NCBI RefSeq assembly: GCF_058153355.1
Contig: NZ_CM177019.1
Length of the DNA stretch: 64,000 nucleotides
Strand: one strand, 5' to 3'
Positions 1 to 43,986 of the stretch are shown here, one piece after another (position 1 is the stretch's first letter; each line of letters starts with the position of its first letter). A program made the translations under genes and the position numbers. Under the pieces are notes generated by a model that was given only the letters and a program-made list of their open reading frames with translations, did no database searches and was not told the origin of the DNA.

Positions 1-358
1 CTTCAGAGTCATTAATCTGGGCGTAATGGTCAGCCAGGACGAATATATTGATGCTGCCATTGAAACTGGCGCTGACGCGATTGTCGTCTCCTCTATCTAT
101 GGGCATGGCGATATCGATTGTCTGGGCATGCGCGAACGCTGCATCGAGCGTGGGCTGGGTAACATCATGCTCTATGTGGGCGGTAACCTGGTGGTCGGAA
201 AACATGACTTCGCTGACGTGGAAACCAAGTTCAAAGAGATGGGATTTGATCGCGTCTTTTCCCCAAGTCATGACTTAGAAGATGTTTGTCAGCTGATGGC
301 CCACGATATCACCCAACGTCATGACGTTGATACTCGCATTCTTGAAGAGGCAATCTGA
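1..358 (+). CDS. Glutamate mutase small (sigma, B12-binding) subunit, 5'-truncated by window edge
   Basis: Frame continues open to position 2 (FRVINLGV upstream of the first Met). Translation resembles clostridial GlmS/MutS B12-binding subunit (AIETGAD..VSS.YG.G.IDC, VGGN.VVGK). Sits first in a glmS-glmL-glmE-mal gene order. Confidence 0.8.
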
Positions 359-1746
359 TGCAAATCGTCTCTGTCGATATTGGATCGACGTGGACCAAAG
401 CAGCCCTCTTCACCCGGGAGGGGGACGCGTTAACGTTGGTTAACCACGTTCTGACCCCAACCACCACCCATCATCTGGCGAAAGGGTTTTTCTCCAGCCT
501 GGACCAGGTGTTAAACGTAGATGATGCCCTCCCCCTGTTAAACAGTGGTGAGGTTGCATTGAAGTATTCCTCCTCTGCCGAAGGTGGGCTGGCGGTTGCC
601 GCAATGGGATTGGTGCCTTCTATCACCCTGGAAACCGCGAAAGTAACCGCTCACTCTGCGGGTGCTAAAATTGCGCAATATTACGCCTACAAGCTGAACC
701 GCCGTGATATCCAGGCACTGGAAGAAACGCAGCCCGATATTCTCTTGTTCACCGGCGGCACCGACGGCGGAGAAGAAAGCTACGGACTGAATAACGCCCG
801 TGTGCTGGCAGAATCCAAACTCGACTGCGCCATTATTTATGCCGGAAACCGGGATATTCAGGATAAGGTGCAGGAGATCCTCGGGCATAAAGACCTGACC
901 ATCGTCGACAACGTTCTGCCCGATCTTGACCATCCGAACCCTTTAGCTGCACGCCAGGCTATCTGCGACATATTCCTTAAACGCATCGTTAAAGGGAAAG
1001 GGCTGGATGTCATTGTTGATAAAACAGGCGAAGAACCAATGCCGACACCATGGACGGTCTTTGAACTGGTTAAGGCAATCAGTAACGTCGATCACAGCTG
1101 GAAAGAGTTCATGCTGATCGACATGGGCGGCGCAACCACCGATGTCTATTCCGCCTGTGCCAACACGCTCTCGCCCGACACTGTTTTACATGGCGTACCG
1201 GAACCCTTCGTAAAACGGACGGTGGAAGGCGATCTGGGAATGCGCGTCTCGGCAATGGTTGTTGGTGAAAGTGCGAAAGAGTTAGTCAGTGTGAATTTTG
1301 CTCAGCAACCCGCACAGTTGGACGCTTTTTATCATTACCTCCGTCATCTAGTCGCTCATCCCGACTACTTACCCGCGAATGCAGATGAAAAATATTTCGA
1401 TACCGTCCTGGCCGGACTGTGTGTGGGTTATGCCACCGAAAGACATGCGGGCACCAAAAAAGAGGTCTGCACCTGCGTCGGCAATGTCGATTTACAGATG
1501 GGACGTGATCTGACAACCGTGCGTAAAGTCGTGGGTTCCGGCGGATGGCTCTCACGTGCCAGTCAGTTCGATATGCATCACTGGTTGAAATACCGCGAGT
1601 TAAACGACGACGGTAAACGCATTCTCTTACCGACCGAATTTGAATATTACCGCGATTACCGGGGGCTATTACCACTGCTGGCAAACGTCGCCAGAGTCGA
1701 TCCGCTGGCCGCCGCGCGCACCAGTATTCAATGCTTAACCCTATAA
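358..1746 (+). CDS. glmL: Glutamate mutase-associated protein L (MutL/GlmL-like, putative reactivase/chaperone)
   Basis: 462-aa ORF lying between the mutase S and E subunit genes, as in clostridial glm/mut operons. Start overlaps the upstream stop (ATGA). Confidence 0.7.
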   Translation: MQIVSVDIGSTWTKAALFTREGDALTLVNHVLTPTTTHHLAKGFFSSLDQVLNVDDALPLLNSGEVALKYSSSAEGGLAVAAMGLVPSITLETAKVTAHSAGAKIAQYYAYKLNRRDIQALEETQPDILLFTGGTDGGEESYGLNNARVLAESKLDCAIIYAGNRDIQDKVQEILGHKDLTIVDNVLPDLDHPNPLAARQAICDIFLKRIVKGKGLDVIVDKTGEEPMPTPWTVFELVKAISNVDHSWKEFMLIDMGGATTDVYSACANTLSPDTVLHGVPEPFVKRTVEGDLGMRVSAMVVGESAKELVSVNFAQQPAQLDAFYHYLRHLVAHPDYLPANADEKYFDTVLAGLCVGYATERHAGTKKEVCTCVGNVDLQMGRDLTTVRKVVGSGGWLSRASQFDMHHWLKYRELNDDGKRILLPTEFEYYRDYRGLLPLLANVARVDPLAAARTSIQCLTL

Positions 1747-1764
1747 CAATTAAGGCTGCAATCA

Positions 1765-3210
1765 ATGGAACTTCGAAATAAGAAATTAACCCATGACGAA
1801 TTCATGACCGAGCGGCAACAGGTATTGAAAACCTGGGAAACCGGCAAGGATGTTGAAAACTTTGAAGATGGCGTTAAATACCAACAAACCATTCCTGAGC
1901 ATAAACGCTTCTCTCATGCCCTGCTGAAAGCAGACAAGGAAGGTAAAACCCTTAGCCAACCGCGCGCAGGCGTGGCGCTGATGGACGAACACATCGAACT
2001 ACTGAAAACACTACAAGAAGAGTGCGATCTGCTGCCGAGCACTATCGATGCATATACCCGTCTGAATCGGTACGAAGAAGCGGCTGTAGGGATTAAAAAA
2101 TCCATCGAAGCCAGAACCTCTAAACTGAACGGTTTACCGGTAGTTAACCACGGCGTCGCAGCTTGCCGTCGCCTCACCGAAACTCTGCAAAAACCGCTAC
2201 AGATCCGCCACGGCACGCCAGATGCGCGTCTGCTGGCTGAAATCTCGATGGCCAGCGGCTTTACCAGTTATGAAGGCGGCGGCATTTCCTACAATATTCC
2301 GTATGCCAAGCGCGTAACGCTGGAAAAATCGATCCGCGACTGGCAGTACTGCGACCGTTTAATGGGGATGTATGAAGAACACGGGATCCGCATCAACCGC
2401 GAACCGTTTGGCCCACTAACGGGTACGCTGATCCCGCCGTTTATCTCGCACTCTATCGCGATAATCGAAGGCTTGCTGGCACTGGAACAGGGTGTGAAAT
2501 CTATTACCGTTGGTTATGGACAGGTCGGCAGCCTGACGCAGGATGTCGCGGCGATCCAGTCTCTGCGTGAACTTGCACACGAATACTTTCAGAGCTATGG
2601 CTATACCGACTATGAATTAAGTACCGTATTTCACCAGTGGATGGGCGGCTTTCCGGAGGACGAATCGAAAGCGTTCGCCATTATCTCCTGGGGTGCTGCC
2701 GTCGCGGGGATGTCTGGTGCTACCAAAGTCATCACCAAAAGTCCGCACGAAGCCTGGGGCATCCCGACTGCTGCTGCCAACATTCAGGGGCTAAAAGCCT
2801 CCCGCCAGATGCTCAACATGGTCAACGAGCAGAAATTCCCGCCGTGCCCGGCGGTTGAACTGGAAATTGAACTGATTAAGAGCGAGGTTCGCGCTGTACT
2901 GAACAAAGTGTTCGAACTGGGTAATGGTGATATTGCGCGCGGTACGGTGCTGGCATTTGAAGCGGGCGTACTGGATGTACCGTTTGCCCCAGCCGCCTGC
3001 AACGCAGGCAAAATTCTTCCGGTCCGTGACAACACCGGCGCGATACGCGTACTGGAAGCCGGAGCCGTTCCATTGCCAAAAGATATTCTCGACCTCCACC
3101 ACGATTACGTTGCTGAACGCGCACGCTTTGAAGGACGCCAACCGACATTCCAGATGGTTGTAGATGACATCAATGCTGTATCCCACAGTAAATTAATAGG
3201 AAGACCATAA
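1765..3210 (+). CDS. glmE: Glutamate mutase large (epsilon) subunit / methylaspartate mutase E
   Basis: 481-aa ORF of the expected size and operon position between glmL and methylaspartase. Confidence 0.8.
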   Translation: MELRNKKLTHDEFMTERQQVLKTWETGKDVENFEDGVKYQQTIPEHKRFSHALLKADKEGKTLSQPRAGVALMDEHIELLKTLQEECDLLPSTIDAYTRLNRYEEAAVGIKKSIEARTSKLNGLPVVNHGVAACRRLTETLQKPLQIRHGTPDARLLAEISMASGFTSYEGGGISYNIPYAKRVTLEKSIRDWQYCDRLMGMYEEHGIRINREPFGPLTGTLIPPFISHSIAIIEGLLALEQGVKSITVGYGQVGSLTQDVAAIQSLRELAHEYFQSYGYTDYELSTVFHQWMGGFPEDESKAFAIISWGAAVAGMSGATKVITKSPHEAWGIPTAAANIQGLKASRQMLNMVNEQKFPPCPAVELEIELIKSEVRAVLNKVFELGNGDIARGTVLAFEAGVLDVPFAPAACNAGKILPVRDNTGAIRVLEAGAVPLPKDILDLHHDYVAERARFEGRQPTFQMVVDDINAVSHSKLIGRP

Positions 3211-4451
3211 TGAAAATAAAACAGGCCCTTTTCACCGCTGGCTACTCTTCATTCTATTTCGATGACCAGCAGGCGATAAAAAACGGAGCGGGTCACGACG
3301 GCTTTTTTTATACCGGAGAGCCGGTAACACAGGGGTTTAACGCCGTACGTCAGGCCGGGGAGTGCGTTTCGGTTCAGTTGATTCTGGAAAACGGTGCGGT
3401 CGCCGTAGGCGACTGTGCTGCCGTACAGTATTCCGGGGCAGGCGGTCGCGATCCACTGTTCCTCGCAGAGCACTTTATTCCGTTCCTCAACGACCATATC
3501 AAGCCATTACTGGTAGGCCGCGATGTGGATGCTTTCCTGCCGAATGCCCGTTTCTTCGACAAATTGCGTATTGACGGAAACTTGCTGCATACCGCCGTAC
3601 GTTACGGATTATCACAGGCGCTGCTTGATGCTACCGCGCTGGCAACCGGCCGTCTAAAAACTGAAGTGGTCTGTGATGAATGGCAGTTGCCACGCGTGGC
3701 GGAATCCATTCCATTATTTGGTCAGAGCGGCGACGATCGATATATCGCTGTCGATAAGATGATCCTTAAGGGCATCGACGTGCTACCTCATGCGCTGATT
3801 AATAACGTCGAAGAGAAACTGGGCTTTAAAGGAGAAAAACTGCGCGAATATGTCCGTTGGCTATCCGATCGGATTCTAAGCAAACGCACCAGCGCACGCT
3901 ACCACCCTACCCTGCACATCGATGTATACGGCACTATTGGTCTGATCTTCGATATGGATCCGCTTCGCTGTGCGCAATACATCGCCAGTCTGGAAAAAGA
4001 GGCGCAAGGCCTGCCGCTCTACATTGAGGGGCCGGTCGATGCCGGTAACAAGCCCGATCAAATTCGCCTGCTGACCGCGATTACCAAAGAGCTGACGCGC
4101 CTCGGTTCCGGCGTGAAAATTGTGGCCGATGAATGGTGTAACACCTACCAGGATATTGTTGATTTCACTGATGCCGCCAGTTGCCACATGGTGCAAATCA
4201 AAACCCCGGATCTGGGCAGTATTCACAACATCGTCGATGCAGTTCTTTATTGCAACAGCCACAGCATGGAAGCGTACCAGGGCGGCACCTGCAATGAAAC
4301 CGATGTCAGCGCCCGCACGTGTGTCCACGTCGCCCTTGCCGCTCGCCCTATGCGTATGCTGGTAAAACCGGGGATGGGCTTTGACGAAGGCCTCGATATC
4401 GTCTTCAACGAAATGAATCGTACTATCGCGCTGTTGCAGGCTAAGGATTAA
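3210..4451 (+). CDS. mal: 3-Methylaspartate ammonia-lyase (beta-methylaspartase)
   Basis: 413-aa ORF, same length as clostridial methylaspartase, enolase-superfamily-like. Start overlaps the glmE stop. Confidence 0.8.
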   Translation: MKIKQALFTAGYSSFYFDDQQAIKNGAGHDGFFYTGEPVTQGFNAVRQAGECVSVQLILENGAVAVGDCAAVQYSGAGGRDPLFLAEHFIPFLNDHIKPLLVGRDVDAFLPNARFFDKLRIDGNLLHTAVRYGLSQALLDATALATGRLKTEVVCDEWQLPRVAESIPLFGQSGDDRYIAVDKMILKGIDVLPHALINNVEEKLGFKGEKLREYVRWLSDRILSKRTSARYHPTLHIDVYGTIGLIFDMDPLRCAQYIASLEKEAQGLPLYIEGPVDAGNKPDQIRLLTAITKELTRLGSGVKIVADEWCNTYQDIVDFTDAASCHMVQIKTPDLGSIHNIVDAVLYCNSHSMEAYQGGTCNETDVSARTCVHVALAARPMRMLVKPGMGFDEGLDIVFNEMNRTIALLQAKD

Positions 4452-4454
4452 CAA

Positions 4455-5825
4455 ATGGCTCGTTCTTTTAAAGTCTTATCGCCAACGGCAATCCTCGGGT
4501 ATGGATTCCCGGAAGAGAGCTTCCGCAAAGCGATGGCAGAATCGCCCGATCTGATCGCCGTTGATGCAGGCTCTTCCGATCCTGGCCCCCACTACCTCGG
4601 GGCGGGCAAACCGTTTACCGATCGCGCAGGGGTCAAACGCGATCTACGCTATATGATCACCGCAGGCGTGCAAAATAATATACCGGTGGTGATCGGAACG
4701 GCCGGCGGTTCTGGTGCAGCTCCACACCTGGAGTGGTGCCGAGAAATAATTCATGAGATTGCCCGGGAAGAGCACCTCGCGTTCTCGATGGCGCTGATCC
4801 CGGCAGACGTTGACAAAGCCATCGTCCACCAGGCGCTGGATAACGGCAAAATCACGGCGCTGGATTTTGTCCCGCCGTTAACCCACGACGCGATTGACGA
4901 AAGTACGTATATCGTCGCGCAAATGGGCGTCGAACCCTTCCAGCAGGCGCTGAAAGAAGGCGCGCAAGTGGTGCTGGGCGGGCGCGCTTACGACCCGGCC
5001 TGCTTTGCTGCGCTACCGATCATGCAAGGCTTTGATGAAGGTCTGGCGCTGCATTGTGGGAAAATCCTTGAATGCGCGGCAATCGCCGCAACGCCCGGCT
5101 CAGGCTCTGACTGTGCGATGGGCATCATTGATGACAACGGCTTTACGCTGAAGACATTTAATCCGAAGCGTAAATTTACCGAAACGTCAGCGGCTGCACA
5201 CACACTGTATGAGAAATCCGATCCCTACTTCCTGCCAGGACCTGGCGGCGTGTTGAACCTGAAAGGTTGCACATTTAAAGCGATCAATGATGGCGAAGTT
5301 TACGTCAGCGGTTCTAAGCATGAAGAAACGCCCTATGCCCTGAAACTGGAAGGTGCGCGGCGGGTGGGTTTCCGCTGTTTGACCATCGCCGGAACGCGCG
5401 ACCCGATCATGATCGCCGGGATCGATAACATCATCGATGAAGTCAAAACCAGCGTTTCGCGTAATCTGTCCTTAGACGATGACAGCATTCGCATCAATTT
5501 CCACCTGTACGGCAAAAACGGGGTGATGGGTAACCATGAACCGATGCAAACTGCCGGGCATGAGCTGGGGATTGTCCTTGATGTAGTTGCACCGACCCAG
5601 GAAATTGCCAACAGCGTTTGCTCGCTGGTGCGCTCTACCATGCTGCACTACGGCTATGAAAACCGCATCGCTACCGCAGGCAACCTGGCGTTCCCGTTCT
5701 CCCCTTCTGATATCCAGGGCGGGCCGGTATACGAATTTTCCATATATCACCTGATTGAAGCCAACGACGCTCTGCGTTTTGATTTCCATATTGAACAGGT
5801 GACGCCAGAAGGAGTTCAGGCATGA
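4455..5825 (+). CDS. DUF1446 (AtuA-like) family protein, function unknown
   Basis: 456-aa ORF tightly packed in the operon; family assignment from recollection of AtuA-like sequence features. Confidence 0.6.
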   Translation: MARSFKVLSPTAILGYGFPEESFRKAMAESPDLIAVDAGSSDPGPHYLGAGKPFTDRAGVKRDLRYMITAGVQNNIPVVIGTAGGSGAAPHLEWCREIIHEIAREEHLAFSMALIPADVDKAIVHQALDNGKITALDFVPPLTHDAIDESTYIVAQMGVEPFQQALKEGAQVVLGGRAYDPACFAALPIMQGFDEGLALHCGKILECAAIAATPGSGSDCAMGIIDDNGFTLKTFNPKRKFTETSAAAHTLYEKSDPYFLPGPGGVLNLKGCTFKAINDGEVYVSGSKHEETPYALKLEGARRVGFRCLTIAGTRDPIMIAGIDNIIDEVKTSVSRNLSLDDDSIRINFHLYGKNGVMGNHEPMQTAGHELGIVLDVVAPTQEIANSVCSLVRSTMLHYGYENRIATAGNLAFPFSPSDIQGGPVYEFSIYHLIEANDALRFDFHIEQVTPEGVQA

Positions 5826-6139
5826 AACAGTCAATTGTCTCACTGGCGCAAGTCATTCGTTCGAAAAATGCCGGACCTTACGAACTGGTTTTAGATATTT
5901 TATTTAAAACGAAAGAAAACTATGAGCGAGTAAAATCATCAGGGCAATTAACCCCAGAACTGATTGCGCGCTTATATCATGTTGAACCTGACTTTATTCA
6001 TCGTATTGTCTGGTTTGATCCTTCTAACGCAGTAAAAATTGTCATGCCACGAGATATTATCTCCGGGAATGTAGGTGACAATGATGTCTATGGCGCACAG
6101 CAACATGCACCTTTATTAAATATGAGTTTCGATTTGTAA
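5822..6139 (+). CDS. Small DUF4387-like protein (usual partner of DUF1446 proteins)
   Basis: 105-aa ORF overlapping the upstream stop by 4 nt, indicating translational coupling. Confidence 0.55.
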   Translation: MKQSIVSLAQVIRSKNAGPYELVLDILFKTKENYERVKSSGQLTPELIARLYHVEPDFIHRIVWFDPSNAVKIVMPRDIISGNVGDNDVYGAQQHAPLLNMSFDL

Positions 6140-6299
6140 AAATCCGAACACTTTTAGCCAACTGACATCCCGTCACTTATTGCAGCTCAACACTTCAGCT
6201 ATTTGTAAGGTTGTTATAGCAGGTAGATGCCTGAATCTCTATTCAGGCATCCACTTCTCCTGATTCTGATTTATCGCCGTGCACCTGATGGAGGAAAAA

Positions 6300-7580
6300 A
6301 TGAAGAAAATAAGTTTAACCACGATGATTCTTTTGGCGCTGGTACTTGGAATGATTATCGGCGTAGTGCTCAATAACACTGCTTCACCGGAAACAGCAAA
6401 ACTCTATGCGCAAGAAATATCGATATTCACGACGATTTTCTTACGACTGATAAAAATGATTATCGCTCCGTTAGTGGTCTCTACCCTGGTGGTAGGTATT
6501 GCTAAAATGGGCGATGCCAAAGCCCTTGGTCGTATTTTTTCTAAAACACTCTTTTTATTTATTTGCGCCTCATTGCTGTCAATTGCCTTAGGCTTGATAA
6601 CGGTAAATTTCTTCATGCCAGGCACAGGAATTAATTTTGTTGCACACGGTGCCGAAACCACCGGAGTGGTCGCGTCAGAACCCTTTACACTAAAAGTATT
6701 TATTTCGCATGCTTTCCCCACCAGCATTGTCGATGCCATGGCGCACAATGAAATTTTGCAAATCGTGGTGTTCTCAATTTTCCTCGGCTGTAGCCTGACG
6801 GCGATTGGTGAGAAAGGCAGCGCCATCGTTCACGCCTTAGATTCGCTGGCACATGCCATGTTAAAGCTCACTGGCTACGTCATGCTCTTCGCTCCCCTGA
6901 CCGTATTCGCCGCTATTTCAGCATTGATTGCTGAACGAGGACTGGCAGTTATGGTGAGCGCCGGGATCTTTATGGGTGAATTTTATTTCACCATGTTATT
7001 ACTTTGGGTGCTGCTTATCGGTCTGGCCATCGTTTATGTCGGCCCCTGCATCAGACGCCTGACCCGCGCCCTTTCAGAACCCGCCCTGCTGGCATTTACC
7101 ACATCCAGTTCTGAAGCTGCTTTTCCGGGAACGCTTGAAAAACTGGAGCAATTTGGCGTTTCCCCCAAAATTGCCAGCTTTGTCTTACCCATTGGCTACT
7201 CATTTAATCTCGTTGGATCAATGGCCTACTGCTCCTTCGCCACAGTTTTCATCGCCCAGGCCTGCAATATCCATTTATCCATCGGTGAGCAAATCACCAT
7301 GCTGTTGATCCTGATGTTGACCTCGAAAGGAATGGCTGGCGTACCACGCGCCTCAATGGTGGTTATCGCCGCCACGCTCAACCAGTTCAATATTCCGGAA
7401 GCGGGGCTGATCTTGCTGATGGGCGTTGATCCGTTCCTTGATATGGGGCGTTCCGCGACAAACGTCATGAGCAACGCAATGGGCGCTGCGATGGTGAGTC
7501 GGTGGGAAGGCGAACATTTCGGCGAGGGTTGTCGGGGTAAAGCATTAAAACCCAATGAATCGAACGTTGCTCTGCCCTGA
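6300..7580 (+). CDS. Dicarboxylate/amino acid:cation symporter (DAACS family), likely glutamate/aspartate uptake
   Basis: Multi-pass membrane protein with GltP/GltT-like sequence. Start chosen at the ATG (6300) preceded by a GGAGGA ribosome-binding site. Confidence 0.8.
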   Translation: MKKISLTTMILLALVLGMIIGVVLNNTASPETAKLYAQEISIFTTIFLRLIKMIIAPLVVSTLVVGIAKMGDAKALGRIFSKTLFLFICASLLSIALGLITVNFFMPGTGINFVAHGAETTGVVASEPFTLKVFISHAFPTSIVDAMAHNEILQIVVFSIFLGCSLTAIGEKGSAIVHALDSLAHAMLKLTGYVMLFAPLTVFAAISALIAERGLAVMVSAGIFMGEFYFTMLLLWVLLIGLAIVYVGPCIRRLTRALSEPALLAFTTSSSEAAFPGTLEKLEQFGVSPKIASFVLPIGYSFNLVGSMAYCSFATVFIAQACNIHLSIGEQITMLLILMLTSKGMAGVPRASMVVIAATLNQFNIPEAGLILLMGVDPFLDMGRSATNVMSNAMGAAMVSRWEGEHFGEGCRGKALKPNESNVALP

Positions 7581-7687
7581 GGGAGATCTTAAGCAATCAG
7601 AAGCCAATGACTACGCATTTTTATAAGCCGGATCATGAAGTTAGACGGCAATTAAGTAACACTAACGTTTAAGGTGAAAAGTGAAAT

Positions 7688-9340
7688 ATGTCCAAACCAT
7701 TTATCTGGCAAGAACCGTTTCTACAAAATAAAGACGGTACAGAATATACATTAATTAGCGATCAACATATTACAGTAACGGAATTAGACGGCGAAGAAGT
7801 AATAAAAATCGCTCCTGAAGCATTAACGCTGCTTGCCCGGCAGGCATTTTATGAAGCCTCTTTTTTCTTACGTTCCGCTCATTTGCAACAGGTCGCCAGC
7901 ATTCTTAACGATCCGCAGGCCAGCAGTAATGATAAATACGTTGCGTTGCAGTTATTACGTAATGCTGAAGTCTCAGCAAAAGGGGTATTACCCAACTGTC
8001 AGGATACCGGCACCGCAACTATTGTTGCCAGTAAAGGGCAACAGATATGGACCGGAGGCAACGACGCCGAAGCCTTAAGCAAAGGCATTTACACCACTTT
8101 TCAGGAAAATAATTTGCGCTTTTCACAAAATGCGCCGCTGGATATGTATACCGAAGTCAATACGTACACCAATCTACCGGCGCAGATTGATATCAGCGCC
8201 GTCGCTGGTGATGAGTACCATTTTCTCTGTATTAATAAAGGGGGCGGCTCCGCCAATAAAGCCGCACTTTATCAGGAAACCAAATCCTTATTGCAACCAG
8301 AAAAACTGACCGCATTTTTAATCGAAAAAATGAAATCGCTGGGCACCGCTGCCTGCCCGCCTTACCACATCGCCTTTGTCGTCGGAGGGCTTTCAGCCGA
8401 TCAAACCTTAAAAGTTGCCAAGCTGGCCTCTACGAAATATTACGACAATTTGCCCACCAGCGGAAACGAGCAGGGACAAGCATTCCGTGATATTGAGCTG
8501 GAAAAAGCGTTGCTCGAAGCCAGTCAGCAATTTGGTATTGGTGCGCAATTTGGGGGTAAATATTTCGCTCATGATATTCGCGTCATTCGTCTGCCGCGTC
8601 ACGGTGGCTCCTGCCCGATAGCTATGGCGCTCTCCTGTTCTGCCGATCGCAATATCAAAGCAAAAATTAACAAGCATGGTATCTGGCTGGAAAAACTCGA
8701 ACACAATCCGGGGCAATATATTCCAGCCTCACTGCGGGAAGAAAATCACGCGCAACATGTACAGCTGGATCTAAACCGTCCGTTGCGTGACGTGATGCAG
8801 GATCTCGCCAGATTACCGGTAGGCACCCGCGTGTCGTTAAGTGGTCCCATCGTAGTGGCGCGCGATATCGCCCACGCCAAAATAAAAGCGCGGCTGGATA
8901 GCGGCGAATCGATGCCGGATTATCTGAAGCATCATATTGTCTATTACGCTGGCCCGGCGAAAACACCGGAGAACATGGCCTGCGGTTCACTGGGTCCAAC
9001 CACGGGCGGTCGAATGGACGGTTATGTCGAAACCTTCCAGGCGGCTGGCGGCAGTCTGGTAATGTTATCGAAAGGTAACCGCAGCCAGCAGGTCACCGAT
9101 GCCTGTCACAAACATGGCGGCTTCAATCTGGGAAGTATTGGCGGTGCAGCTGCGTTACTGGCGCAAGAATATGTCAAAAGTCTGCGTTGCCTGGAATACC
9201 CGGAGCTGGGTATGGAAGCGGTGTGGATGATGGAAGTGGAAAATCTGCCCGCATTCATCCTGGTCGATGATAAAGGCAATAATTTCTTTAGTCAGTTTGA
9301 GCAGCAACACCGCTGCGCCAGTTGCCCTGCGGGACATTAA
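7688..9340 (+). CDS. fumD: Class I fumarate hydratase paralog, probable mesaconase (FumD-type)
   Basis: 550-aa ORF closely resembling FumA/FumB (CQDTGTA, GGGSANK, CPPYH, SCSADRN). Genomic context is the methylaspartate pathway. Confidence 0.85.
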
Positions 9341-9349
9341 GGAAAATGA

Positions 9350-9952
9350 ATGGAAGCGCGAATTTCAACTGAACGGCATGTGCAGCGCCAGCAGAAATTG
9401 AAGGAACAGGTCGATACGCGCGTCGCGGCGGCGATAGAGAAAAAAGGGATCTTGATTGTTTTCACCGGCAACGGCAAAGGGAAATCCACTGCCGCGTTTG
9501 GTACTGTGACGCGCGCGGTGGGTCATGGCAAAACGGTGGGGGTTGCGCAGTACATCAAGGGGCAATGGGACAACGGCGAATACAACCTTCTCCAGCCGCT
9601 GGGGGTTGAGTTTCATATTATGGGAACCGGTTTTACCTGGGAGACTCAGAACCGGCAAGCGGATATCGACGCGGCGAAAGAGGTCTGGTCGGAAAGCAAA
9701 CGGATGCTGGCTGACAAGCGTTACGACTTAGTGGTGCTTGATGAGCTGACCTATATGCTGGCTTACCATTATCTGGACACCGAAGAAGTGATCACTTCTC
9801 TGCAAAACCGCCCGGCACAACAAAGTGTCATTGTCACCGGACGCAGTTGCCACAGTCAGATATTAAAAATGGCGGATACGGTCAGCGAAATCCGCCCCGT
9901 CAAACATGCTTTTGATAACGGCATTCAGGCGCAGCCGGGTATCGACTGGTAA
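9350..9952 (+). CDS. Cob(I)alamin adenosyltransferase (BtuR/CobO family)
   Basis: 200-aa ORF with P-loop-like GNGKGKSTAA, characteristic of CobA/BtuR-type ATP:corrinoid adenosyltransferases. Confidence 0.8.
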   Translation: MEARISTERHVQRQQKLKEQVDTRVAAAIEKKGILIVFTGNGKGKSTAAFGTVTRAVGHGKTVGVAQYIKGQWDNGEYNLLQPLGVEFHIMGTGFTWETQNRQADIDAAKEVWSESKRMLADKRYDLVVLDELTYMLAYHYLDTEEVITSLQNRPAQQSVIVTGRSCHSQILKMADTVSEIRPVKHAFDNGIQAQPGIDW

Positions 9953-9955
9953 TAA

Positions 9956-9990
9956 CTGCGCCTGGCATCCCGCCAGGCGCAGGTTTTACA
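9956..9990. terminator. Bidirectional intrinsic terminator between the adenosyltransferase gene and the convergent LysR gene
   Basis: Perfect 10-bp inverted repeat ctgcgcctgg/ccaggcgcag with a 7-nt loop, followed by a T-run. Confidence 0.6.
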
Positions 9991-10891
9991 TCTCCTGCGG
10001 TACGACCGATTTCGCCAGCAACCATTCACGAAATTGCTGCAAGTGCGGCGAGTCAGACTTCTCTTCCTGCCACGTCATAATAAAACGATTACCGGTACGA
10101 ATAGGCACATCACAGGGAATCACCATATCGCCACTATCCAAATCATGTTGAATAGCGAACCGTGGTAACAGCGCCACGCCGAGATTAGAGCGCACGGCGG
10201 CAATCAGCATTGAAAGCAAATCGAAACGTGGTCCGTTATTGACCAGCGGACTGCTAACGCCAGATAAAGCAAACCACTCTTCCCAGCCAGTAATACGGGT
10301 GCTTTGATGCAGAAGTGGTAACTCAGTAAGCAGTTCTGCCACTGAAAGTTTTTGATCGGACATTGCAAGCAAACTGCCGCTGCATACCGGCAAAATCTCC
10401 TCTTCAAAGAGATATTCTACTTCCGCCCAGGGCGCGCAAAAATTTTCGCGCATAATGACAGCATCGTACTCCCGATTAAGAAAATCGCCGTTATTAGCTA
10501 AAGAATGAATATTAACAATAATATCGGGATGTAACTTTGTGAATTCATGTAAATTTGGGATTAACCAGTGGGTACTAAACGTAGGATTAACGGCAAGTTC
10601 AATAACCTGAACCGTAGGCTGCCAGGTCATAATCGTATTGGTATCGCGTTCCAGCTTATTTAATGTTTCTTTTACTATCCCCAGGTAATACTTCCCTGCA
10701 TCATTAAGAAAAATGCGTTTTTTAGAGTGTGAAAATAGCGGAGTATGTAAAAATTCCTCCAGCGCACTTACTTGTCTGAATACAGCACTTTGGGTTAACG
10801 CTAACTCCTCTGCCGCTCTGGTATAGCTTTCATGACGTGCGACGACCTCAAAAGTCACCAGCAGCTCCGTTTTAGGTATTTTTCCTCGCAT
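9986..10891 (-). CDS. LysR-family transcriptional regulator
   Basis: N-terminal helix-turn-helix typical of LysR regulators (TFEVVARHESYTRAAEELALTQSAVFRQV). Start could instead be the upstream ATG at 10921. Confidence 0.85.
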   Translation of the reverse strand: MRGKIPKTELLVTFEVVARHESYTRAAEELALTQSAVFRQVSALEEFLHTPLFSHSKKRIFLNDAGKYYLGIVKETLNKLERDTNTIMTWQPTVQVIELAVNPTFSTHWLIPNLHEFTKLHPDIIVNIHSLANNGDFLNREYDAVIMRENFCAPWAEVEYLFEEEILPVCSGSLLAMSDQKLSVAELLTELPLLHQSTRITGWEEWFALSGVSSPLVNNGPRFDLLSMLIAAVRSNLGVALLPRFAIQHDLDSGDMVIPCDVPIRTGNRFIMTWQEEKSDSPHLQQFREWLLAKSVVPQEM

Positions 10892-11480
10892 AATGCCGTC
10901 CGTGAAAAAATAACAATTCAAAAATTATTTTATAAAAAACAGTAGCACTAATGAATATCATAATTCAAATAAACAAACCAGTCAGCTATATGTCTAACCA
11001 GGAAAATAAAGTGACAATAATCCTAAAACAGGAATTTCACCTCAGTTATCCGCATGCAATACTTTAAAGCTATTATTGCAAGAATATTATTCATATACAT
11101 GAATATACTCTAAATAAGTCAAGTTGCAGGAAGGGAACAAATAATGAATTTCCAGAAGCTTACATAAGTAAGTGACCTGGGTGAGCGAACATCGATGCAG
11201 CACATGCAACTTGAATTATGACAAGTATACAATGATAAATTTATATACCCTATGTTATATATTATCTATGTCCGGTTAGATTGAATGAGTCATAGCCTTA
11301 AAAGACTTCACAAAAGATAATTCCTCTTTAACAATAAGCCAGATTTACCACTTGTAAAACTTGCTATCGCCACATACACTACGCGCGTTTTCTTTCCCTT
11401 TTGCTGGCTGCTGACCGGAAAGACAAAATTACCCTCGCAATACAGGGGGTTGATTAACGTCTATATTTCAGGACAGCGTT
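10892..11480. promoter_or_regulatory. AT-rich divergent intergenic region between the LysR gene and the RtcB-like gene
   Basis: About 590 bp of strongly AT-rich non-coding DNA between divergently oriented genes. Confidence 0.5.
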
Positions 11481-12878
11481 ATGCATCATCTTTCAAGGCT
11501 TGATAAAGCCTTTCTGCGCAAAGGGATCCAACTTTCCCGCGCCAACAATATTGTTTCATTATGTCGTCCATCAGGAGCCAGTGCCCGCGTACTGCTGCCG
11601 GACGAACTGCCGCTGGAAGAAAAAGCAGTAACACAACTGCTTGATTTTGCAGAAGTGAAGCTACCAGACCACCCAGGTTATGTGCGCCAGACGTGCGCGA
11701 CGCCAGATTTTCATCCCGGCAATGGCGTCCCCGTTGGCGCGGTGGTGGCCTCAACGCCGGATTTAGTCATTCCCGCCGCCATCGGCACCGATATTTCTTG
11801 TGGCATGCGGCTGCTGACGACCGGATTAACACTTGAGCAAGCCGAAGCGCATAAAGACGTCATCGCTCAGCGGTTAACGCAAGTGCTACTGCAAAATGAG
11901 CGCGATGTTCCGTTATCCGCACAGGCGTTCACCGCGCTTTTTGATGGCGGACCGGCAGATTGCGTGTCGACCTTGCCATCAGCAGGTCTCTGGACACGCA
12001 CGAATATCCCCCGAATGGTACAAGAGATTGACCGCTGCATTGGGCTTAACGAGCATAACAGTCATTCGCGTTATGCCCCACCCGCCCTGCTGGCAACGGA
12101 CCGCGCATTACTCCGCGATCCTTGTCTTGGTACGCCGGGTTCAGGTAATCATTTTATTGAACTTCAGGTCGTTGATAGCGTGGTTGATCGCCATGTAGCC
12201 TGGCAACAAGGGCTGAAAACAGGCGATATTGTGGTGATGATCCACAGTGGATCGCGAGATGTTGGCTTTTACGTCGGAAGACGCTGGATGGATCGCGCCC
12301 GTGCTGAATGGCCCACCGGACATAAACATCCACAAAGCGGGTTATATGGTCTGGCAGGCGGACTGGCGGAGGAATATCTACAAGCGATAGGAATGGCGGC
12401 GCGTTACGCGTGGTTAAATCGCGTGACAATTGCCGAAATGGTGCGCGTATGTCTTGCCAATCTCTTTCATCAGGACAATTCGCATCTGGTGGTGGATGTG
12501 CCACATAACATCATCCTTCGCGAGCATGAAATGAATATTCATCGCAAAGGCGCAACACCGGCACGAGTGGGCAATCTGGCGTTAATCCCCGGTTCAATGG
12601 GCGATTATTCGTGGCTTGCGGTAGGTTGCGGCAACCCGGAGTGGCTGTGGTCTTGCAGTCACGGAGCAGGACGCAGCCAGCGTCGGCAGGCCATGCGCTC
12701 ACGCGCGACTGAAGAGTCAACGTTGCCGTGGCAATGCGTCACATTGCGCGAAGAACGGCGTATTGAAGAAGCGCCAGCTGCTTATAAAGATATTGGTCCG
12801 GTTATCGAAGCCCAACAAGAGGCCGGATTAATTCATCCAGCGGTTAGATTCCGACCGTGGTTAACGTTTAAAGCATAA
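11481..12878 (+). CDS. RtcB-family RNA ligase-like protein (orphan paralog)
   Basis: 465-aa ORF with RtcB hallmark motifs (DISCGMR, GSGNHFIE, HSGSRDVG, CSHGAGR). No rtcA or rtcR gene adjacent. Confidence 0.75.
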   Translation: MHHLSRLDKAFLRKGIQLSRANNIVSLCRPSGASARVLLPDELPLEEKAVTQLLDFAEVKLPDHPGYVRQTCATPDFHPGNGVPVGAVVASTPDLVIPAAIGTDISCGMRLLTTGLTLEQAEAHKDVIAQRLTQVLLQNERDVPLSAQAFTALFDGGPADCVSTLPSAGLWTRTNIPRMVQEIDRCIGLNEHNSHSRYAPPALLATDRALLRDPCLGTPGSGNHFIELQVVDSVVDRHVAWQQGLKTGDIVVMIHSGSRDVGFYVGRRWMDRARAEWPTGHKHPQSGLYGLAGGLAEEYLQAIGMAARYAWLNRVTIAEMVRVCLANLFHQDNSHLVVDVPHNIILREHEMNIHRKGATPARVGNLALIPGSMGDYSWLAVGCGNPEWLWSCSHGAGRSQRRQAMRSRATEESTLPWQCVTLREERRIEEAPAAYKDIGPVIEAQQEAGLIHPAVRFRPWLTFKA

Positions 12879-12975
12879 AAAAGGCCATCATACGATGGCC
12901 AACCATGTCGAAACCGACAGCCCTTCGCCATTCCTGTAGAGGGAAGCGGCGAGGGCTATTTCTTATTACAGATAT
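12875..12975 (-). ncRNA. sdhX: sucD 3' UTR ending in an intrinsic terminator; expected position of the SdhX (RybD) sRNA
   Basis: Hairpin ggccatc-gtatg-gatggcc followed by a U-tract on the minus strand immediately after the sucD stop. The sRNA identity is from position only; its sequence was not verified. Confidence 0.5.
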
Positions 12976-13845
12976 TTATTTCAGAACAGTTTTCAGTGCT
13001 TCACCGATATCCGCCAGGCTGCGAACGGTTTTCACGCCTGCGGCTTCCAGAGCAGCAAATTTCTCATCCGCAGTCCCTTTCCCACCGGCAATGATGGCAC
13101 CCGCGTGGCCCATACGTTTGCCTTTCGGCGCAGTTACACCAGCGATGTAACCTACAACTGGCTTGGTAACGTGCTCTTTGATGTACGCAGCCGCTTCTTC
13201 TTCAGCGCTACCGCCGATCTCACCGATCATCACGATCGCTTCGGTCTGCGGATCTTTTTCGAACATTTCGAGGATGTCGATAAAGTTAGAGCCTGGGATC
13301 GGGTCGCCGCCGATACCGACACAGGTCGACTGACCGAAACCGTAATCCGTGGTCTGTTTAACCGCTTCATAGGTCAGTGTACCGGAACGGGAAACGATAC
13401 CCACTTTACCCGGTTTGTGAATGTGACCAGGCTGGATGCCGATTTTACATTCACCCGGAGTGATAACGCCTGGGCAGTTCGGGCCGATCATGCGTACGCC
13501 AGCTTCGTCCAGTTTCACTTTCACCGTCAGCATATCCAGCGTCGGGATGCCTTCAGTGATGGTGATAATCAGTTTGATACCTGCGTCGATGGCTTCCAGA
13601 ATGGAGTCTTTGCAGAACGGAGCCGGTACGTAGATAACAGAAGCGGTAGCGCCAGTGGCAGCAACGGCTTCACGCACAGTGTTGAACACCGGCAGACCGA
13701 GGTGGGTAGTACCGCCTTTACCAGGGGTTACGCCGCCAACCATTTTAGTGCCGTATGCAATGGCCTGTTCAGAGTGGAAAGTCCCCTGGCTACCAGTAAA
13801 GCCCTGGCAGATAACCTTGGTGTTTTTATCAATTAAAATGGACAT
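12976..13845 (-). CDS. sucD: Succinyl-CoA synthetase alpha subunit
   Basis: 289-aa ORF matching SucD. Confidence 0.97.
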
Positions 13846-15089: not shown

Positions 15090-15275
15090 GTCACCCGTAG
15101 GCCTGATAAGACGCGCAAGCGTCGCATCAGGCATCGCGTGTCGGATGCGGCGCGAGCGCCTTATCCGACCTACATTGATGGTCCCCGTAGGCCTGATAAG
15201 ACGCGTCAGCGTCGCATCAGGCTTCAATTGCCGGAGAAAGCGATAATGCCTCATCCGGTCTACAGTGCAGGTGAA
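15090..15275. repeat. REP/BIME palindromic elements in the sucB-sucC intergenic region
   Basis: Repeated gcctgataagacgcg...cgtcgcatcaggc and ggatgcggcg palindromic units. Confidence 0.8.
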
Positions 15276-23701: not shown

Positions 23702-24985
23702 ATGGCTGATACAAAAGCAAAACTCACCCTCAACGGGGATACAGCTGTTGAACTGGATGTGCTGAAAGGCACGCTGGGTCAAGACGTTATTGATATCCGT
23801 ACTCTCGGTTCAAAAGGTGTGTTCACCTTTGACCCAGGCTTCACTTCAACCGCATCCTGCGAATCTAAAATTACTTTTATTGATGGTGATGAAGGTATTT
23901 TGCTGCACCGCGGTTTCCCGATCGATCAGCTGGCGACCGATTCTAACTACCTGGAAGTTTGTTACATCCTGCTGAATGGTGAAAAACCAACTCAGGAACA
24001 GTATGACGAATTTAAAACGACGGTGACCCGTCATACCATGATCCACGAGCAGATTACCCGTCTGTTCCATGCTTTCCGTCGTGACTCGCACCCTATGGCA
24101 GTCATGTGTGGTATTACCGGCGCGCTGGCGGCGTTCTATCACGACTCGCTGGATGTTAACAATCCTCGTCATCGTGAAATTGCCGCGTTCCGCCTGCTGT
24201 CAAAAATGCCGACCATGGCCGCGATGTGTTACAAGTATTCCATTGGTCAGCCATTCGTTTACCCGCGCAACGATCTCTCCTATGCCGGTAACTTCCTGAA
24301 TATGATGTTCTCCACGCCGTGCGAACCGTATGAAGTCAACCCGATTCTGGAACGTGCTATGGACCGTATTCTGATCCTGCACGCTGACCATGAACAGAAC
24401 GCCTCTACCTCCACCGTGCGTACCGCTGGCTCTTCGGGGGCGAACCCGTTTGCCTGTATCGCAGCAGGTATTGCTTCACTGTGGGGACCTGCGCACGGTG
24501 GTGCTAACGAAGCAGCGCTGAAAATGCTGGAAGAAATCAGCTCCGTTAAACACATTCCGGAATTTGTTCGTCGTGCGAAAGACAAGAATGACTCTTTCCG
24601 CCTGATGGGCTTCGGTCACCGCGTGTACAAAAACTACGACCCGCGCGCCACCGTCATGCGTGAAACCTGCCACGAAGTCCTGAAAGAGCTGGGCACGAAG
24701 GATGACCTGCTGGAAGTAGCTATGGAGCTGGAAAATATCGCGCTGAACGATCCGTACTTTATTGAGAAAAAACTGTACCCTAACGTCGATTTCTACTCTG
24801 GTATCATCCTGAAAGCGATGGGTATTCCGTCTTCCATGTTCACCGTCATATTCGCTATGGCACGTACAGTTGGCTGGATCGCCCACTGGAGCGAAATGCA
24901 CAGTGACGGCATGAAGATTGCCCGTCCACGTCAGCTGTATACCGGCTATGAAAAACGCGATTTTAAAAGCGACATCAAACGTTAA
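23702..24985 (+). CDS. gltA: Citrate synthase
   Basis: 427-aa ORF starting [36 protein letters not shown]. Confidence 0.98.
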
Positions 24986-25014
24986 CTGCTGATTCCTAAG
25001 CAGTAAATTCTGTT

Positions 25015-25045
25015 AACCCGCCTTTAAAAGGCGGGTTAATTTTTA
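25015..25045 (+). terminator. gltA intrinsic terminator
   Basis: Hairpin aacccgcc-tttaaaa-ggcgggtt followed by a T-run. Confidence 0.75.
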
Positions 25046-25376
25046 TCTACCTGAACACAAAAAAATGTAAAAATAAAATTAATTAACCGGCTGACATTAA
25101 TATTGCAAAATAATAGAATTGTTCATTTTATCGGCAAAATAATAAGTTTTAATTAAGGTATCTGCTTTTAGTTACATTTATAACCTCATGAAAATGAGGT
25201 ATATCTCTCTCATTCCCCCGATAACATTCATTAAATTATTAATTCATCACATCAATTAGTTAACCTTGCATTTAATATAATTAATAATATTTTTAAGTAA
25301 AACTAAAAACATTCGACAATCAAATAAGATATTCTGATATCGCTATACTTTTTCTATTTCTGTAAAGGACTCAGTT

Positions 25377-25943
25377 ATGTTTAAAGGACAAAAAACATTG
25401 GCCGCATTGGCCGTATCTCTGTTATTCACTGCACCGGTTTATGCAGCTGATGAAGGTTCTGGTGAAATTCACTTTAAAGGTGAGGTTATAGAAGCACCAT
25501 GTGAAATACATCATGATGATATTGATAAAGAAATTGAGCTAGGTCAGGTGACCACCAGCCACATTAATCAGTCTCATCACAGCGATGCGGTTGCTGTCGA
25601 CCTGCGTTTAATCAACTGCGACCTGGAAAACTCTAATAACGGTTCCGGTGGCAAGATTTCTAAAGTCGCGGTCACCTTCGATAGCTCAGCGAAAACCACT
25701 GGCGCAGATCCGATACTCAACAATACCAGCACTGGCGAAGCCACCGGTGTCGGCGTGCGTTTAATGAATAAGGATCAAAGCAATATCATTTTAGGCACTG
25801 CTTCTCCGGATATCGACCTCGCACCAACGTCCAGTGAACAAACACTGAACTTCTTTGCCTGGATGGAACAAATTGATCAAGCGACACCAGTAACGGCAGG
25901 GGCTGTTACAGCGAATGCAACCTACGTACTGGATTATAAATAA
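25377..25943 (+). CDS. ybgD: Fimbrial subunit (chaperone-usher pilus)
   Basis: 188-aa ORF with signal peptide and fimbrin-like sequence. Confidence 0.9.
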   Translation: MFKGQKTLAALAVSLLFTAPVYAADEGSGEIHFKGEVIEAPCEIHHDDIDKEIELGQVTTSHINQSHHSDAVAVDLRLINCDLENSNNGSGGKISKVAVTFDSSAKTTGADPILNNTSTGEATGVGVRLMNKDQSNIILGTASPDIDLAPTSSEQTLNFFAWMEQIDQATPVTAGAVTANATYVLDYK

Positions 25944-25992
25944 GCGTTATTGGGCGGCATCACTGCCGCCTTTCTTAAAATATTTATCTGGT

Positions 25993-28452: not shown

Positions 28453-28466
28453 TTAAGGAAATGAAA

Positions 28467-29198
28467 ATGACATTTATGAAAGGACTTCCCCTTTTGTTGT
28501 TGGTTACCAGTCTGTGTAGCCACGCTGCACTACAACCCGACCGCACTCGCATTGTGTTTAACGCTAATGATAAAGCTACCAGTCTGCGAGTAGATAATCG
28601 TAGCGATAAACTCCCCTACCTCGCTTATTCCTGGCTCGAAAATGAAAAAGGGGAGAAAAGCGACGATCTTCTGGTCGCCCTGCCACCGATACAACGTCTG
28701 GAACCGAAAGCAACAACGCAGGTGCGGATAGTCAAGCAAGCCTCGACCGCGAAATTACCGGGCGATCGCGAAACGCTATTTTTCTACAATATGCGTGAAA
28801 TTCCTCCCGCCCCGGAAAAAAACAGCGACCATGCCGTTCTGCAAGTCGCCATCCAGAGCCGTATCAAGGTGTTCTGGCGACCGTCTGCATTACGCAAGAA
28901 AACAGGAGAAAAGGTCGAACTGCAGTTACAGGTCAGCCAGCAGGGCAATCAGCTTAGCTTAAAAAACCCTACTGGCTATTATCTGACCATCGCGTATCTT
29001 GGGCGAAATGAGCAAAGCGTTCTCCCGGGCTTCAAAACTGTGATGATTGCGCCTTTTAGTACAGTAAGCACAACCACTGGAAATTATAGTGGCAGCCAGT
29101 TTTATCTCGGTTATATGGATGATTATGGCGCATTACGCATGACAACGCTCAACTGTAACGGGCAATGCCGTTTACAGGCTGTGGAGGCGAAGAAATGA
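28467..29198 (+). CDS. ybgP: Fimbrial periplasmic chaperone
   Basis: PapD-like chaperone; start placed at [12 protein letters not shown] (signal peptide). Confidence 0.9.
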
Positions 29199-30256
29199 GT
29201 GCTGGCAAGGGATTGTTGCTCATCATCTGTCTGTTATTTCTACCGTTAAAATCTGCGCTTGCCCTGAACTGTTACTTTGGTTCATCCGGTGGTTCGGTAG
29301 AAAAATCGGAATCTATTCAACCATTTGCTGTACCAGGGAATGCCAAACCCGGCGATAAGATCTGGGAGTCTGACGATATTAAAATTCCCGTCTATTGTGA
29401 CAACAATACCAACGGCAACTTTGAGAGCGAGCATGTCTACGCCTGGGTAAACCCGTACCCGGGAATTCAGGATCGCTATTATCAACTCGGCGTAACTTAC
29501 AATGGTGTTGATTATGATGCTAACCAGGGAAAAAGCCGCATCGACACTAACCAGTGCATCGACAGCAAAAACATTAATATTTATACCCCTGAGCAGATCA
29601 TCGCGATGGGATGGCAGAACAAAATTTGCTCTGGTGATCCCAATAATATTCATATGTCGCGTACGTTTCTCGCTCGCATGCGGTTATACGTCAAGATACG
29701 AGAGATACCGCCGCATGATTATCAAAGCACGCTCAGCGATTACATTGTGGTGCAATTTGATGGCGAAGGAAGCGTTAATGAGGACCCAACCGCCCAAAAC
29801 CTGAAATATCATATTACCGGTCTGGAAAACATTCGGGTATTGGATTGCAGCGTCAATTTTTCTATTACCCCAGCCAACCAGGTCATTGATTTTGGTAAAT
29901 TTAATGTACTGGATATCCGGCGACACAACATGACAAAAACATTCGGTATTAAAACGACAAAATCACAAAACGATCAATGTACCGACGGATTCAAAGTCAG
30001 CTCCTCGTTTTATACCGAAGAAACGTTGGTTGAAGAAGATAAAGCATTGCTGATTGGTAATGGTCTGAAGCTACGTTTACTGGATGAAAACGCCTCGCCC
30101 TATACCTTCAACAAATACAGCGAATATGCCGACTTCACCAGTGACATGCTGATCTACGAAAAAACCTATACGGCTGAACTTTCGTCTATTCCCGGCACTC
30201 CCATTGAGGCTGGCTCCTTCGATACCGTGGTGCTTTTTAAGATTAACTATAACTAA
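29195..30256 (+). CDS. ybgO: Fimbrial adhesin-like subunit
   Basis: 353-aa ORF with signal peptide, last gene of the ybgDQPO operon. Start overlaps the ybgP stop. Confidence 0.85.
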
Positions 30257-30265
30257 TTTCCCATG

Positions 30266-41192: not shown

Positions 41193-41211
41193 ACAAATTC
41201 CTTAATGTAAA

Positions 41212-43977: not shown

Positions 43978-43986
43978 GTTCAGTCC

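Follow-up and report, generated by a model that had tools for sequence, protein, structure and literature searches.

The window analysed here, a stretch of 64,000 nucleotides from contig NZ_CM177019.1 (assembly GCF_058153355.1), begins inside a run of nine co-directional reading frames on the plus strand, which meets a single convergent frame on the minus strand (Table 1). The nine genes are spaced as in an operon, with anything from 4-base overlaps to 18-base gaps between them, except ahead of the symporter gene and of fumD, where the gaps widen to about 160 and 107 bases. As the original prediction stated, the window cuts the island at its 5' end: the glmS frame runs off the start, so that 31 N-terminal codons are missing. 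A hairpin with an 11-pair stem, nine of the pairs being G-C, separates the convergent cobA and LysR genes and is probably a terminator serving both.

Table 1. Genes and other features at the left end of the window, with their positions and the evidence or remarks attached to each.
Feature	Position	Strand	Evidence or remark
glmS, glutamate (methylaspartate) mutase B12-binding subunit S	2..358	+	C-terminal 118 of 149 codons in window
glmL (mutL), glutamate mutase accessory/reactivating protein	358..1746	+	NCBIfam
glmE, glutamate mutase catalytic subunit E	1765..3210	+	NCBIfam, structure match
mal, 3-methylaspartate ammonia-lyase	3210..4451	+	NCBIfam, structure match
cmlA ('DUF1446' gene), predicted AtuA-type citramalate lyase large subunit	4455..5825	+	PF07287, PDB match
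cmlB ('DUF4387' gene), predicted citramalate lyase small subunit	5822..6139	+	PF14330, PDB match; 4-base overlap with cmlA
DAACS-family dicarboxylate/amino acid:cation symporter	6300..7580	+	RefSeq start 6300; GTG at 6279 also open
fumD, class I (Fe-S) fumarase, predicted to act as mesaconase	7688..9340	+	PRK15392
cobA/cobO, corrinoid adenosyltransferase	9350..9952	+	NCBIfam
GC-rich hairpin between convergent cobA and LysR genes	9956..9982		Pattern match only
LysR-family (GcvA-like) regulator, convergent with operon	9986..10891	-	In-frame TTG at 10921 also open
AT-rich spacer, 34% G+C	10892..11480		Composition
Orphan RtcB-family RNA ligase paralog, within accessory segment	11481..12878	+	Motifs, structure matches
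sucD 3' untranslated region	12879..12975	-	K-12 homology; terminator hairpin 12883-12900 (pattern match)
sucD	12976-13845	-	K-12 homology region

The gene assignments made earlier from the sequence hold against NCBIfam and Pfam matches and against solved structures; GlmS, GlmL, GlmE, Mal, the class I fumarase and CobA all exceed the curated NCBIfam cut-offs. The cluster had been predicted to be equivalent to the one known from FumD in E. coli O157:H7, and it is indeed the cluster that Kronen and Berg (2015, PMC4682846) described: the same ten genes are present there, arranged and oriented alike and likewise located between sucD and cydA, with proteins 96.6-100% identical to the window copy. 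All ten reading frames are intact both here and in O157, a motif check of the island proteins found their catalytic residues retained, and dN/dS relative to O157 is 0-0.155 across the ten genes, indicating purifying selection.

The 118 residues of GlmS inside the window score 191.7 bits against NF002612 (cut-off 110). The DxHxxG motif falls in the 31 codons outside it; in the nearest relative (L001) the full-length ortholog has DCHAVG at this place and matches Clostridium GlmS (PDB 1I9C) at E = 4e-49. GlmL scores 881 bits against TIGR01319 and 506 bits against NF040745 (cut-off 475), and GlmE 864 bits against TIGR01503. C. cochlearium GlmE (PDB 6H9E and 1CCW chain B) aligns with GlmE end to end at E about 1e-189, and the substrate-binding motifs PRAG, YTRLNRY, IRHGTPD and YEGGGISYNIPY are found, in which the Arg, Glu and Tyr residues presumably bind substrate as in the C. 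cochlearium structure. Mal, with 544 bits against TIGR01502, matches the enzyme of Citrobacter amalonaticus (PDB 1KKO) at E = 3.6e-270 and that of C. tetanomorphum (1KCZ) at 7e-150; within the enolase-superfamily fold it keeps Q172, three residues that bind Mg (D238, E273 and D307) and three that are catalytic (K331, H194 and Q329). The proposed comparison with characterised Clostridium enzymes thus bears out the assignments of GlmS, GlmE and Mal, at E values from 4e-49 to about 1e-189. CobA scores 245 bits against TIGR00708 and 295 bits against NF004637 and has the P-loop GNGKGKST from residue 40. FumD falls within the PRK15392 equivalog, above its cut-off, carries the three Cys ligands for a 4Fe-4S cluster and is near-identical to the characterised ECs0757, with 10 residues differing from the O157 copy. 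Mesaconase is the characterised activity of O157 FumD (Kronen and Berg 2015, PMC4682846), and judged by this likeness FumD of the window is probably a mesaconase.

The island was originally placed directly behind sucD. This is not the case, as an intact RtcB-family gene, which the original description did not mention, and a 589-base spacer intervene. Homology to K-12 starts only at window position 12871, in agreement with the claim that K-12 lacks the cluster, and the accessory DNA therefore ends at 12870 and not at 10891. The whole-genome comparison to K-12 suggested for mapping the island boundaries accordingly gives a right edge at 12870/12871 and identifies the mng segment as an alternative allele. 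The sucD-mngR junction of K-12 had been described as replaced; K-12 does differ at this point, but the replacement concerns the whole mngR-mngA-mngB segment. That allele occupies the same interval, from the sucD terminator to a point 373 bases upstream of cydA, and carries an unrelated 5.9 kb cargo, with which mannosylglycerate is taken up and hydrolysed. The accessory segment takes up all of the space from sucD to cydA; its length in the nearest relative is about 15.4 kb.

The RtcB-family protein has the metal-binding and His-GMP motifs (GSGNHF, HSGSR, HRKGA and SHGAGR) and resembles solved RtcB structures (E about 1e-41 to 1e-43), with an NF007153 score of 205 bits, under the cut-off of 407; an adjoining RtcA/RtcR or PrfH partner gene was not seen at the locus. 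The gene occurs in 296 of 5426 genomes, and 144 of the 5426 match at least 80% of the segment from the LysR gene to sucD (10922-12870). Spacer bases 10910-11372 are specific to the present locus layout and resemble neither the O157 allele nor those of hut type. A hut (histidine-utilisation) cluster lies between the LysR gene and rtcB in some E. coli, whereas O157, which has no intact rtcB, carries at this place a 508-base stretch between the LysR gene and sucD with decayed remnants of hutH-like and rtcB sequence. The segment may once have been a larger locus that combined hut, the methylaspartate pathway and the orphan rtcB, the O157 type being a deletion derivative and the window layout a second, independent reduction; we advance this history tentatively, at somewhat under even chances. 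We found no description of physical hut-glm linkage in E. coli in the literature; such linkage would be in keeping with a recent proposal for gut anaerobes, the 'oxidative histidine pathway', which combines Hut with the methylaspartate route.

We infer orthology, intact proteins and the order of steps for the genes present from their sequences, and the locus is very probably an intact chromosomal operon of enterobacterial type for glutamate catabolism by the methylaspartate pathway, running as follows. The DAACS symporter would import the substrate, presumed to be glutamate, and the adenosylcobalamin-dependent GlmS/GlmE would convert (S)-glutamate to (2S,3S)-3-methylaspartate, with GlmL reactivating the mutase and CobA adenosylating salvaged corrinoid. 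Mal would then remove ammonia to give mesaconate, FumD would add water to yield (S)-citramalate, and the two-subunit CmlAB (AtuA/DUF4387) would cleave citramalate to pyruvate and acetate. Local regulation presumably falls to the convergent LysR gene; its product scores 221 bits against NF008352, under the cut-off of 288. To our knowledge E. coli does not synthesise cobalamin de novo, so the pathway would depend on external corrinoid. By our own calculation, glutamate degraded in this way together with pyruvate formate-lyase could in principle give two acetate and formate without net redox change.

The symporter scores 314 bits against DctA (cut-off 513), slightly above its 304 bits against GltP (cut-off 638), and is under both cut-offs; its relatives carry the RefSeq label 'dicarboxylate/amino acid:cation symporter', and glutamate is a presumed substrate. 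Mal of O157 is active in vivo, supporting growth with methylaspartate as nitrogen source and hence releasing usable ammonium (bioRxiv 10.1101/2025.11.12.688011). These observations would suit a physiological substrate other than glutamate, namely some imported dicarboxylate or amino acid of C4 or C5 size (e.g. mesaconate, methylaspartate, citramalate or aspartate), or a pathway used mainly for nitrogen scavenging and less for energy. However, a complete glutamate mutase is conserved together with its reactivase and its own adenosyltransferase, glmE has a dN/dS of 0.02, and such strong purifying selection on the mutase set would make little sense if glutamate did not feed into the pathway. The hut cluster, which leads from histidine to glutamate, lies within the same segment in some E. 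coli, and we consider a substrate other than glutamate or a mainly nitrogen-scavenging role unlikely.

In its makeup the accessory DNA is a replacement-type segment and not a classical mobile island. Neither the window nor the complete islands of L001 and L002 contain an integrase, transposase or tRNA gene, and the two island ends have no direct repeats of at least 9 bases. The island is not better conserved than the core genome, which speaks against recent transfer: compared with O157, it shows 96.7-99% identity, and the suc, sdh, gltA and kdp genes show 96-98%. G+C content is 50.2% in the island versus 51.1% in the rest of the window. Of 5426 complete E. coli genomes, 1117 match window positions 1-13000, which comprise the island, rtcB and the beginning of sucD, over at least 80% of the length. 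Intact frames, low dN/dS, this spread and a divergence like that of core genes suggest long residence under selection.

An argument for a silent relic of horizontal transfer, now out of use, comes from O157 strain ATCC 700728, in which no expression was found: in all conditions tried, with or without cobalamins, glutamate neither supported nor stimulated growth and Mal activity was absent (Kronen and Berg 2015, PMC4682846). Upstream of both glmS and the LysR gene the sequence is strongly AT-rich, as is typical of H-NS-silenced DNA, and may be silenced in this way. Against this stand the ten intact frames with dN/dS of at most 0.155, the presence in about a fifth of the genomes, the G+C content close to that of the rest of the window and the core-like divergence from O157, and we regard a disused relic as quite improbable. 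As to regulatory signals, no cobalamin riboswitch or other Rfam element was found upstream of glmS in L001, a promoter scan returned 9 matches versus 15.9 in shuffled controls, i.e. fewer, and a scan by eye for an FNR box upstream of glmS gave only one match, at the wrong spacing. The only Rfam match in the search was a naRNA4 repeat between sucB and sucC.

The last step of the proposed glutamate-degrading route would depend on the DUF1446/DUF4387 pair, which belongs to the Pfam families AtuA/PF07287 (cmlA product) and DUF4387/PF14330 (cmlB product). CmlA and CmlB are 91.9% and 84.6% identical to the chains of PDB 9ERQ and 9EVF, deposited as citramalate lyase subunits A and B, the former entry under the title 'Citramalate lyase - AMPPNP - citramalate complex'; this match speaks against a passenger pair of unknown role. 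Cleavage of (S)-citramalate to pyruvate and acetate is reported only for the Raoultella ortholog, which supports growth on mesaconate via this reaction (bioRxiv 10.64898/2026.01.16.699985). The function of CmlAB thus rests on deposited PDB titles and one preprint on an ortholog; our literature searches found no primary paper. We also inspected 80 loci from many phyla, covering 10 kb on either side of cmlA. There, cmlB follows cmlA in 79 of the 80, mal is present in 72, directly upstream in nearly all of them, and glmE in 66, while none has citD, citE or citF homologs within 10 kb. A LysR gene stands at the operon end in 27 of the 80, every one enterobacterial.

Given the identity of the pair to a deposited citramalate lyase, the route most likely runs on past citramalate to pyruvate and acetate. 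The complete uptake-to-citramalate route originally proposed is therefore sound as a pathway but understated in its endpoint. That the cluster instead stops at (S)-citramalate or mesaconate, excreted as a signal or virulence metabolite, with an unrelated role for the DUF pair, is the least probable reading of all: citramalate lyase activity went undetected in O157 extracts and secretion was raised as an option (Kronen and Berg 2015, PMC4682846), but those cells did not express the cluster, and the citramalate-bound structure, the cmlAB-dependent use of mesaconate-derived carbon and the linkage of the pair to mal and glm all speak against it. In other phyla a P-loop protein of about 315 residues follows cmlB, and two such proteins are 62% identical. 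A 314-residue hypothetical gene at the left end of the island, seen in relatives only, is not its counterpart (BLASTP E > 1), and the two left-end hypothetical genes match nothing in NCBIfam or Pfam.

The cluster is real, ordinary and already known; as it adds nothing new to the field, its value lies in correct annotation and not in discovery. About one fifth of E. coli strains, O157:H7 among them, would be genetically equipped to break glutamate down to pyruvate, acetate and ammonia, given corrinoid. The labels 'AtuA family' and 'DUF4387' should in such a context read citramalate lyase subunits. The DUF1446 gene had been left unassigned by Kronen and Berg (2015, PMC4682846), and a citramalate lyase in this place would close the gap that their study left, the fate of citramalate.

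Among known systems, the CmlAB of Raoultella planticola (9ERQ, 9EVF) is closest at this step, with subunits equal in length to those encoded here (456 and 105 residues), and a Raoultella metagenome-assembled genome has the same operon context. The clostridial methylaspartate pathway (C. tetanomorphum, C. cochlearium, C. tetani) shares the first three chemical steps and homologous GlmS, GlmL, GlmE and Mal. The two differ in other respects: Clostridia use a two-subunit mesaconase, MesAB, a citramalate lyase of the CitDEF type that depends on an acyl carrier protein, and a GntR regulator, whereas the E. coli island has the single-chain FumD, the unrelated CmlAB, a LysR regulator, a dedicated CobA and a symporter. 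The methylaspartate cycle of haloarchaea activates mesaconate to mesaconyl-CoA, without a mesaconase or citramalate lyase, and serves acetate assimilation, not glutamate breakdown.

Nine plus-strand reading frames and one convergent minus-strand frame were found at window positions 1-10921. The first of them, glmS, is open to the window edge, so the operon is cut at its 5' end, as originally predicted. Families were assigned with NCBIfam models at their curated cut-offs (table below). Over its whole length, GlmE can be aligned with its C. cochlearium counterpart (E about 1e-189), and it keeps the substrate-binding motifs. Mal has matches in the C. tetanomorphum enzyme and in structure 1KKO from Citrobacter amalonaticus (E = 3.6e-270); its catalytic and metal-binding residues are in place. 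The fumarase retains its three Cys motifs, and CobA its P-loop. The cobA and LysR genes converge on a 33-base gap that holds a strong GC-rich hairpin of 11 pairs, probably a terminator acting in both directions.

Features of the island and its surroundings (window coordinates unless a locus is named; L001, locus of the nearest relative genome; L003, locus of E. coli WB61)
Feature	Coordinates	Strand	Details
Left-end hypothetical genes	L001 3919-4863, 4943-5365		314 and 140 residues; outside window, left of its start
GlmS, methylaspartate mutase subunit S	2-358 (last 118 residues)	+	above curated NCBIfam cut-off
GlmL			above curated NCBIfam cut-off
GlmE, mutase subunit E			864 bits, above curated NCBIfam cut-off
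Mal, methylaspartate ammonia-lyase			544 bits, above curated NCBIfam cut-off
Transporter, dicarboxylate/amino acid:cation symporter family			below both DctA and GltP cut-offs
Fumarase, PRK15392 class I fumarate hydratase			1276 bits vs cut-off 1060
CobA, cob(I)yrinic acid a,c-diamide adenosyltransferase			above curated NCBIfam cut-off
Hairpin	9956-9982		
Regulator, GcvA-like LysR protein			
AT-rich spacer			589 bases, between LysR gene and RtcB-family gene
hut cluster of WB61	L003 358-9000		site corresponds to window ~10910-11372; hutH-like lyase, hutG, hutI, hutD, permease, hutU
RtcB-family RNA ligase paralog	11481-12878	+	orphan, intact, 465 residues; RtcB motifs kept
sucD	12976-13845	-	
naRNA4	L001 21100-21170		corresponds to window ~15100-15170
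VgrG-containing region	40371-46218	-	

Gene content and gene order are shared with the O157:H7 copy, and protein identities are 96.6-100%, confirming the proposed equivalence to the FumD cluster. This cluster was already described by Kronen and Berg, who reported its presence in 26.5% of E. coli and a preference of O157 FumD for mesaconate over fumarate (PMC4682846); the island is therefore already known. Among the 5426 complete E. coli genomes searched by megablast, 1117 match at least 80% of window 1-13000; in K-12-type genomes the match starts only at base 12871, just within the A/T tract of the sucD terminator, in agreement with the expected absence from K-12. The island is real and was correctly read, save for three corrections.

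Two of these concern placement. The island does not lie directly behind sucD, as the AT-rich spacer and the RtcB-family gene intervene; no RtcA, RtcR or PrfH partner of the latter was found. Replacement of K-12 sequence was correctly proposed, but it is not limited to the sucD-mngR junction: the whole 5.9-kb mngR-mngA-mngB segment is gone. The right edge of the accessory segment lies just before base 12871, and the closest complete genomes place its left edge 373 bases upstream of cydA. It also includes two hypothetical genes left of glmS, which have no Pfam or NCBIfam match and are kept in O157 and the nearest relatives. The segment spans 15.4 kb in N96 and 14.0 kb in the O157 genome. Neither an integrase nor a tRNA gene was found at the segment, nor any flanking repeat; the G+C content of the island (50.2%) does not deviate from that of the rest of the window (51.1%), and its divergence from O157 equals that of neighbouring core genes. 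The segment is, therefore, a replacement-type polymorphism and not a mobile island.

Kronen and Berg did not achieve expression of the cluster (PMC4682846). The DNA upstream of both glmS (as read from the nearest relative) and the LysR gene (34% G+C) is very AT-rich, compatible with a presumed silencing under laboratory conditions. That the island is a decaying relic is argued against by the intactness of all ten genes and by dN/dS values of 0 to 0.155 relative to O157; O157 Mal is reported to be active in vivo (bioRxiv 10.1101/2025.11.12.688011).

The right end of the segment varies among strains. Among the 5426 complete E. coli genomes, 296 carry rtcB, and in 144 of these the match extends over the spacer of the window as well. 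WB61 has an 8.6-kb hut cluster, found in 144 genomes, between the LysR gene and rtcB. In the O157 allele the corresponding stretch is 508 bases long and contains degraded pieces of the hutH-like gene (86% over 420 bases) and of rtcB (57 and 43 bases); on these remnants it appears to have arisen by deletion from the hut-plus-rtcB form. Since Hut converts histidine to glutamate, the linkage is functionally sensible, with a glutamate-producing pathway physically joined to a glutamate-consuming one. For gut anaerobes, a 2026 preprint treats the two pathways, Hut and methylaspartate, as a single "oxidative histidine pathway". A map of alleles at the sucD-cydA site, with four forms (mngRAB, island, island plus rtcB, and island plus hut plus rtcB), is one useful outcome of this comparison.

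In its core genes the window shows 96-98% identity to both K-12 and O157, and even the nearest complete genomes, which share the island-plus-rtcB layout, reach only 98.3-98.8%, placing the window, by sequence identity, in a divergent lineage of the E. coli group. The ybgD-ybgQ-ybgP-ybgO fimbrial operon (24000-31000) is far more diverged than the neighbouring core genes, with 78-92% identity to K-12/O157. Where K-12 has ISAs1 remnants and rhsC, the window encodes the type VI secretion tip protein VgrG (743 residues) and two further proteins, one of 921 residues with an endolysin-like domain at its C-terminus and one of 273 residues without a family match. Together they are probably a module of type VI effector and immunity genes. 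The sucB-sucC spacer of the nearest relative contains the Rfam REP-derived nucleoid-associated RNA naRNA4 (76.5 bits); the O157 spacer lacks the ~190-base insert carrying it.

The third correction concerns the end point of the pathway. In the 2015 study, "the fate of (S)-citramalate is still unclear" and the DUF1446 gene was unassigned (PMC4682846). A PDB sequence search returned 9ERQ and 9EVF, with chains named "Citramalate lyase, subunit A (cmlA)" and "subunit B (cmlB)", to which the DUF1446 and DUF4387 proteins are 91.9% and 84.6% identical, respectively, over their full length. Our literature searches found no primary paper on the CmlAB enzyme; growth of E. coli on mesaconate is reported to depend on cmlAB, a Raoultella ortholog (bioRxiv 10.64898/2026.01.16.699985). 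Independent support comes from gene neighbourhood. The genes glmS-glmL-glmE-mal-AtuA-DUF4387 are consecutive in three distant metagenomic loci. Among 80 loci from 80 species of many phyla, surveyed over +/-10 kb, cmlB follows cmlA in 79, mal is present in 72 (immediately upstream of cmlA in nearly all), and glmE, glmS and glmL occur in 66, 59 and 58, respectively, missing neighbours being mostly due to contigs ending at that point; citD, citE or citF homologs were found within 10 kb in none of the 80. The pair is thus most likely the missing lyase, CmlAB, which calls for upgrading the DUF1446/DUF4387 annotation. The predicted uptake-to-citramalate route would not stop at citramalate: on PDB identity and conserved neighbourhood, the island most likely codes for every step that leads from glutamate to pyruvate, acetate and ammonia. 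In most non-enterobacterial loci (40 of the 80 surveyed), cmlB is followed by a conserved protein of ~315 residues with the Walker A motif GAEGSGKST (e.g. L005 11712-12665 and L008 11677-12618), 62% identical between copies of different phyla and, apart from the P-loop, without relatives in Pfam, NCBIfam or the PDB; the E. coli island lacks it. Whereas the clostridial pathway uses a CitDEF-type lyase at the citramalate step, the E. coli island would employ an AtuA-type lyase in its place.
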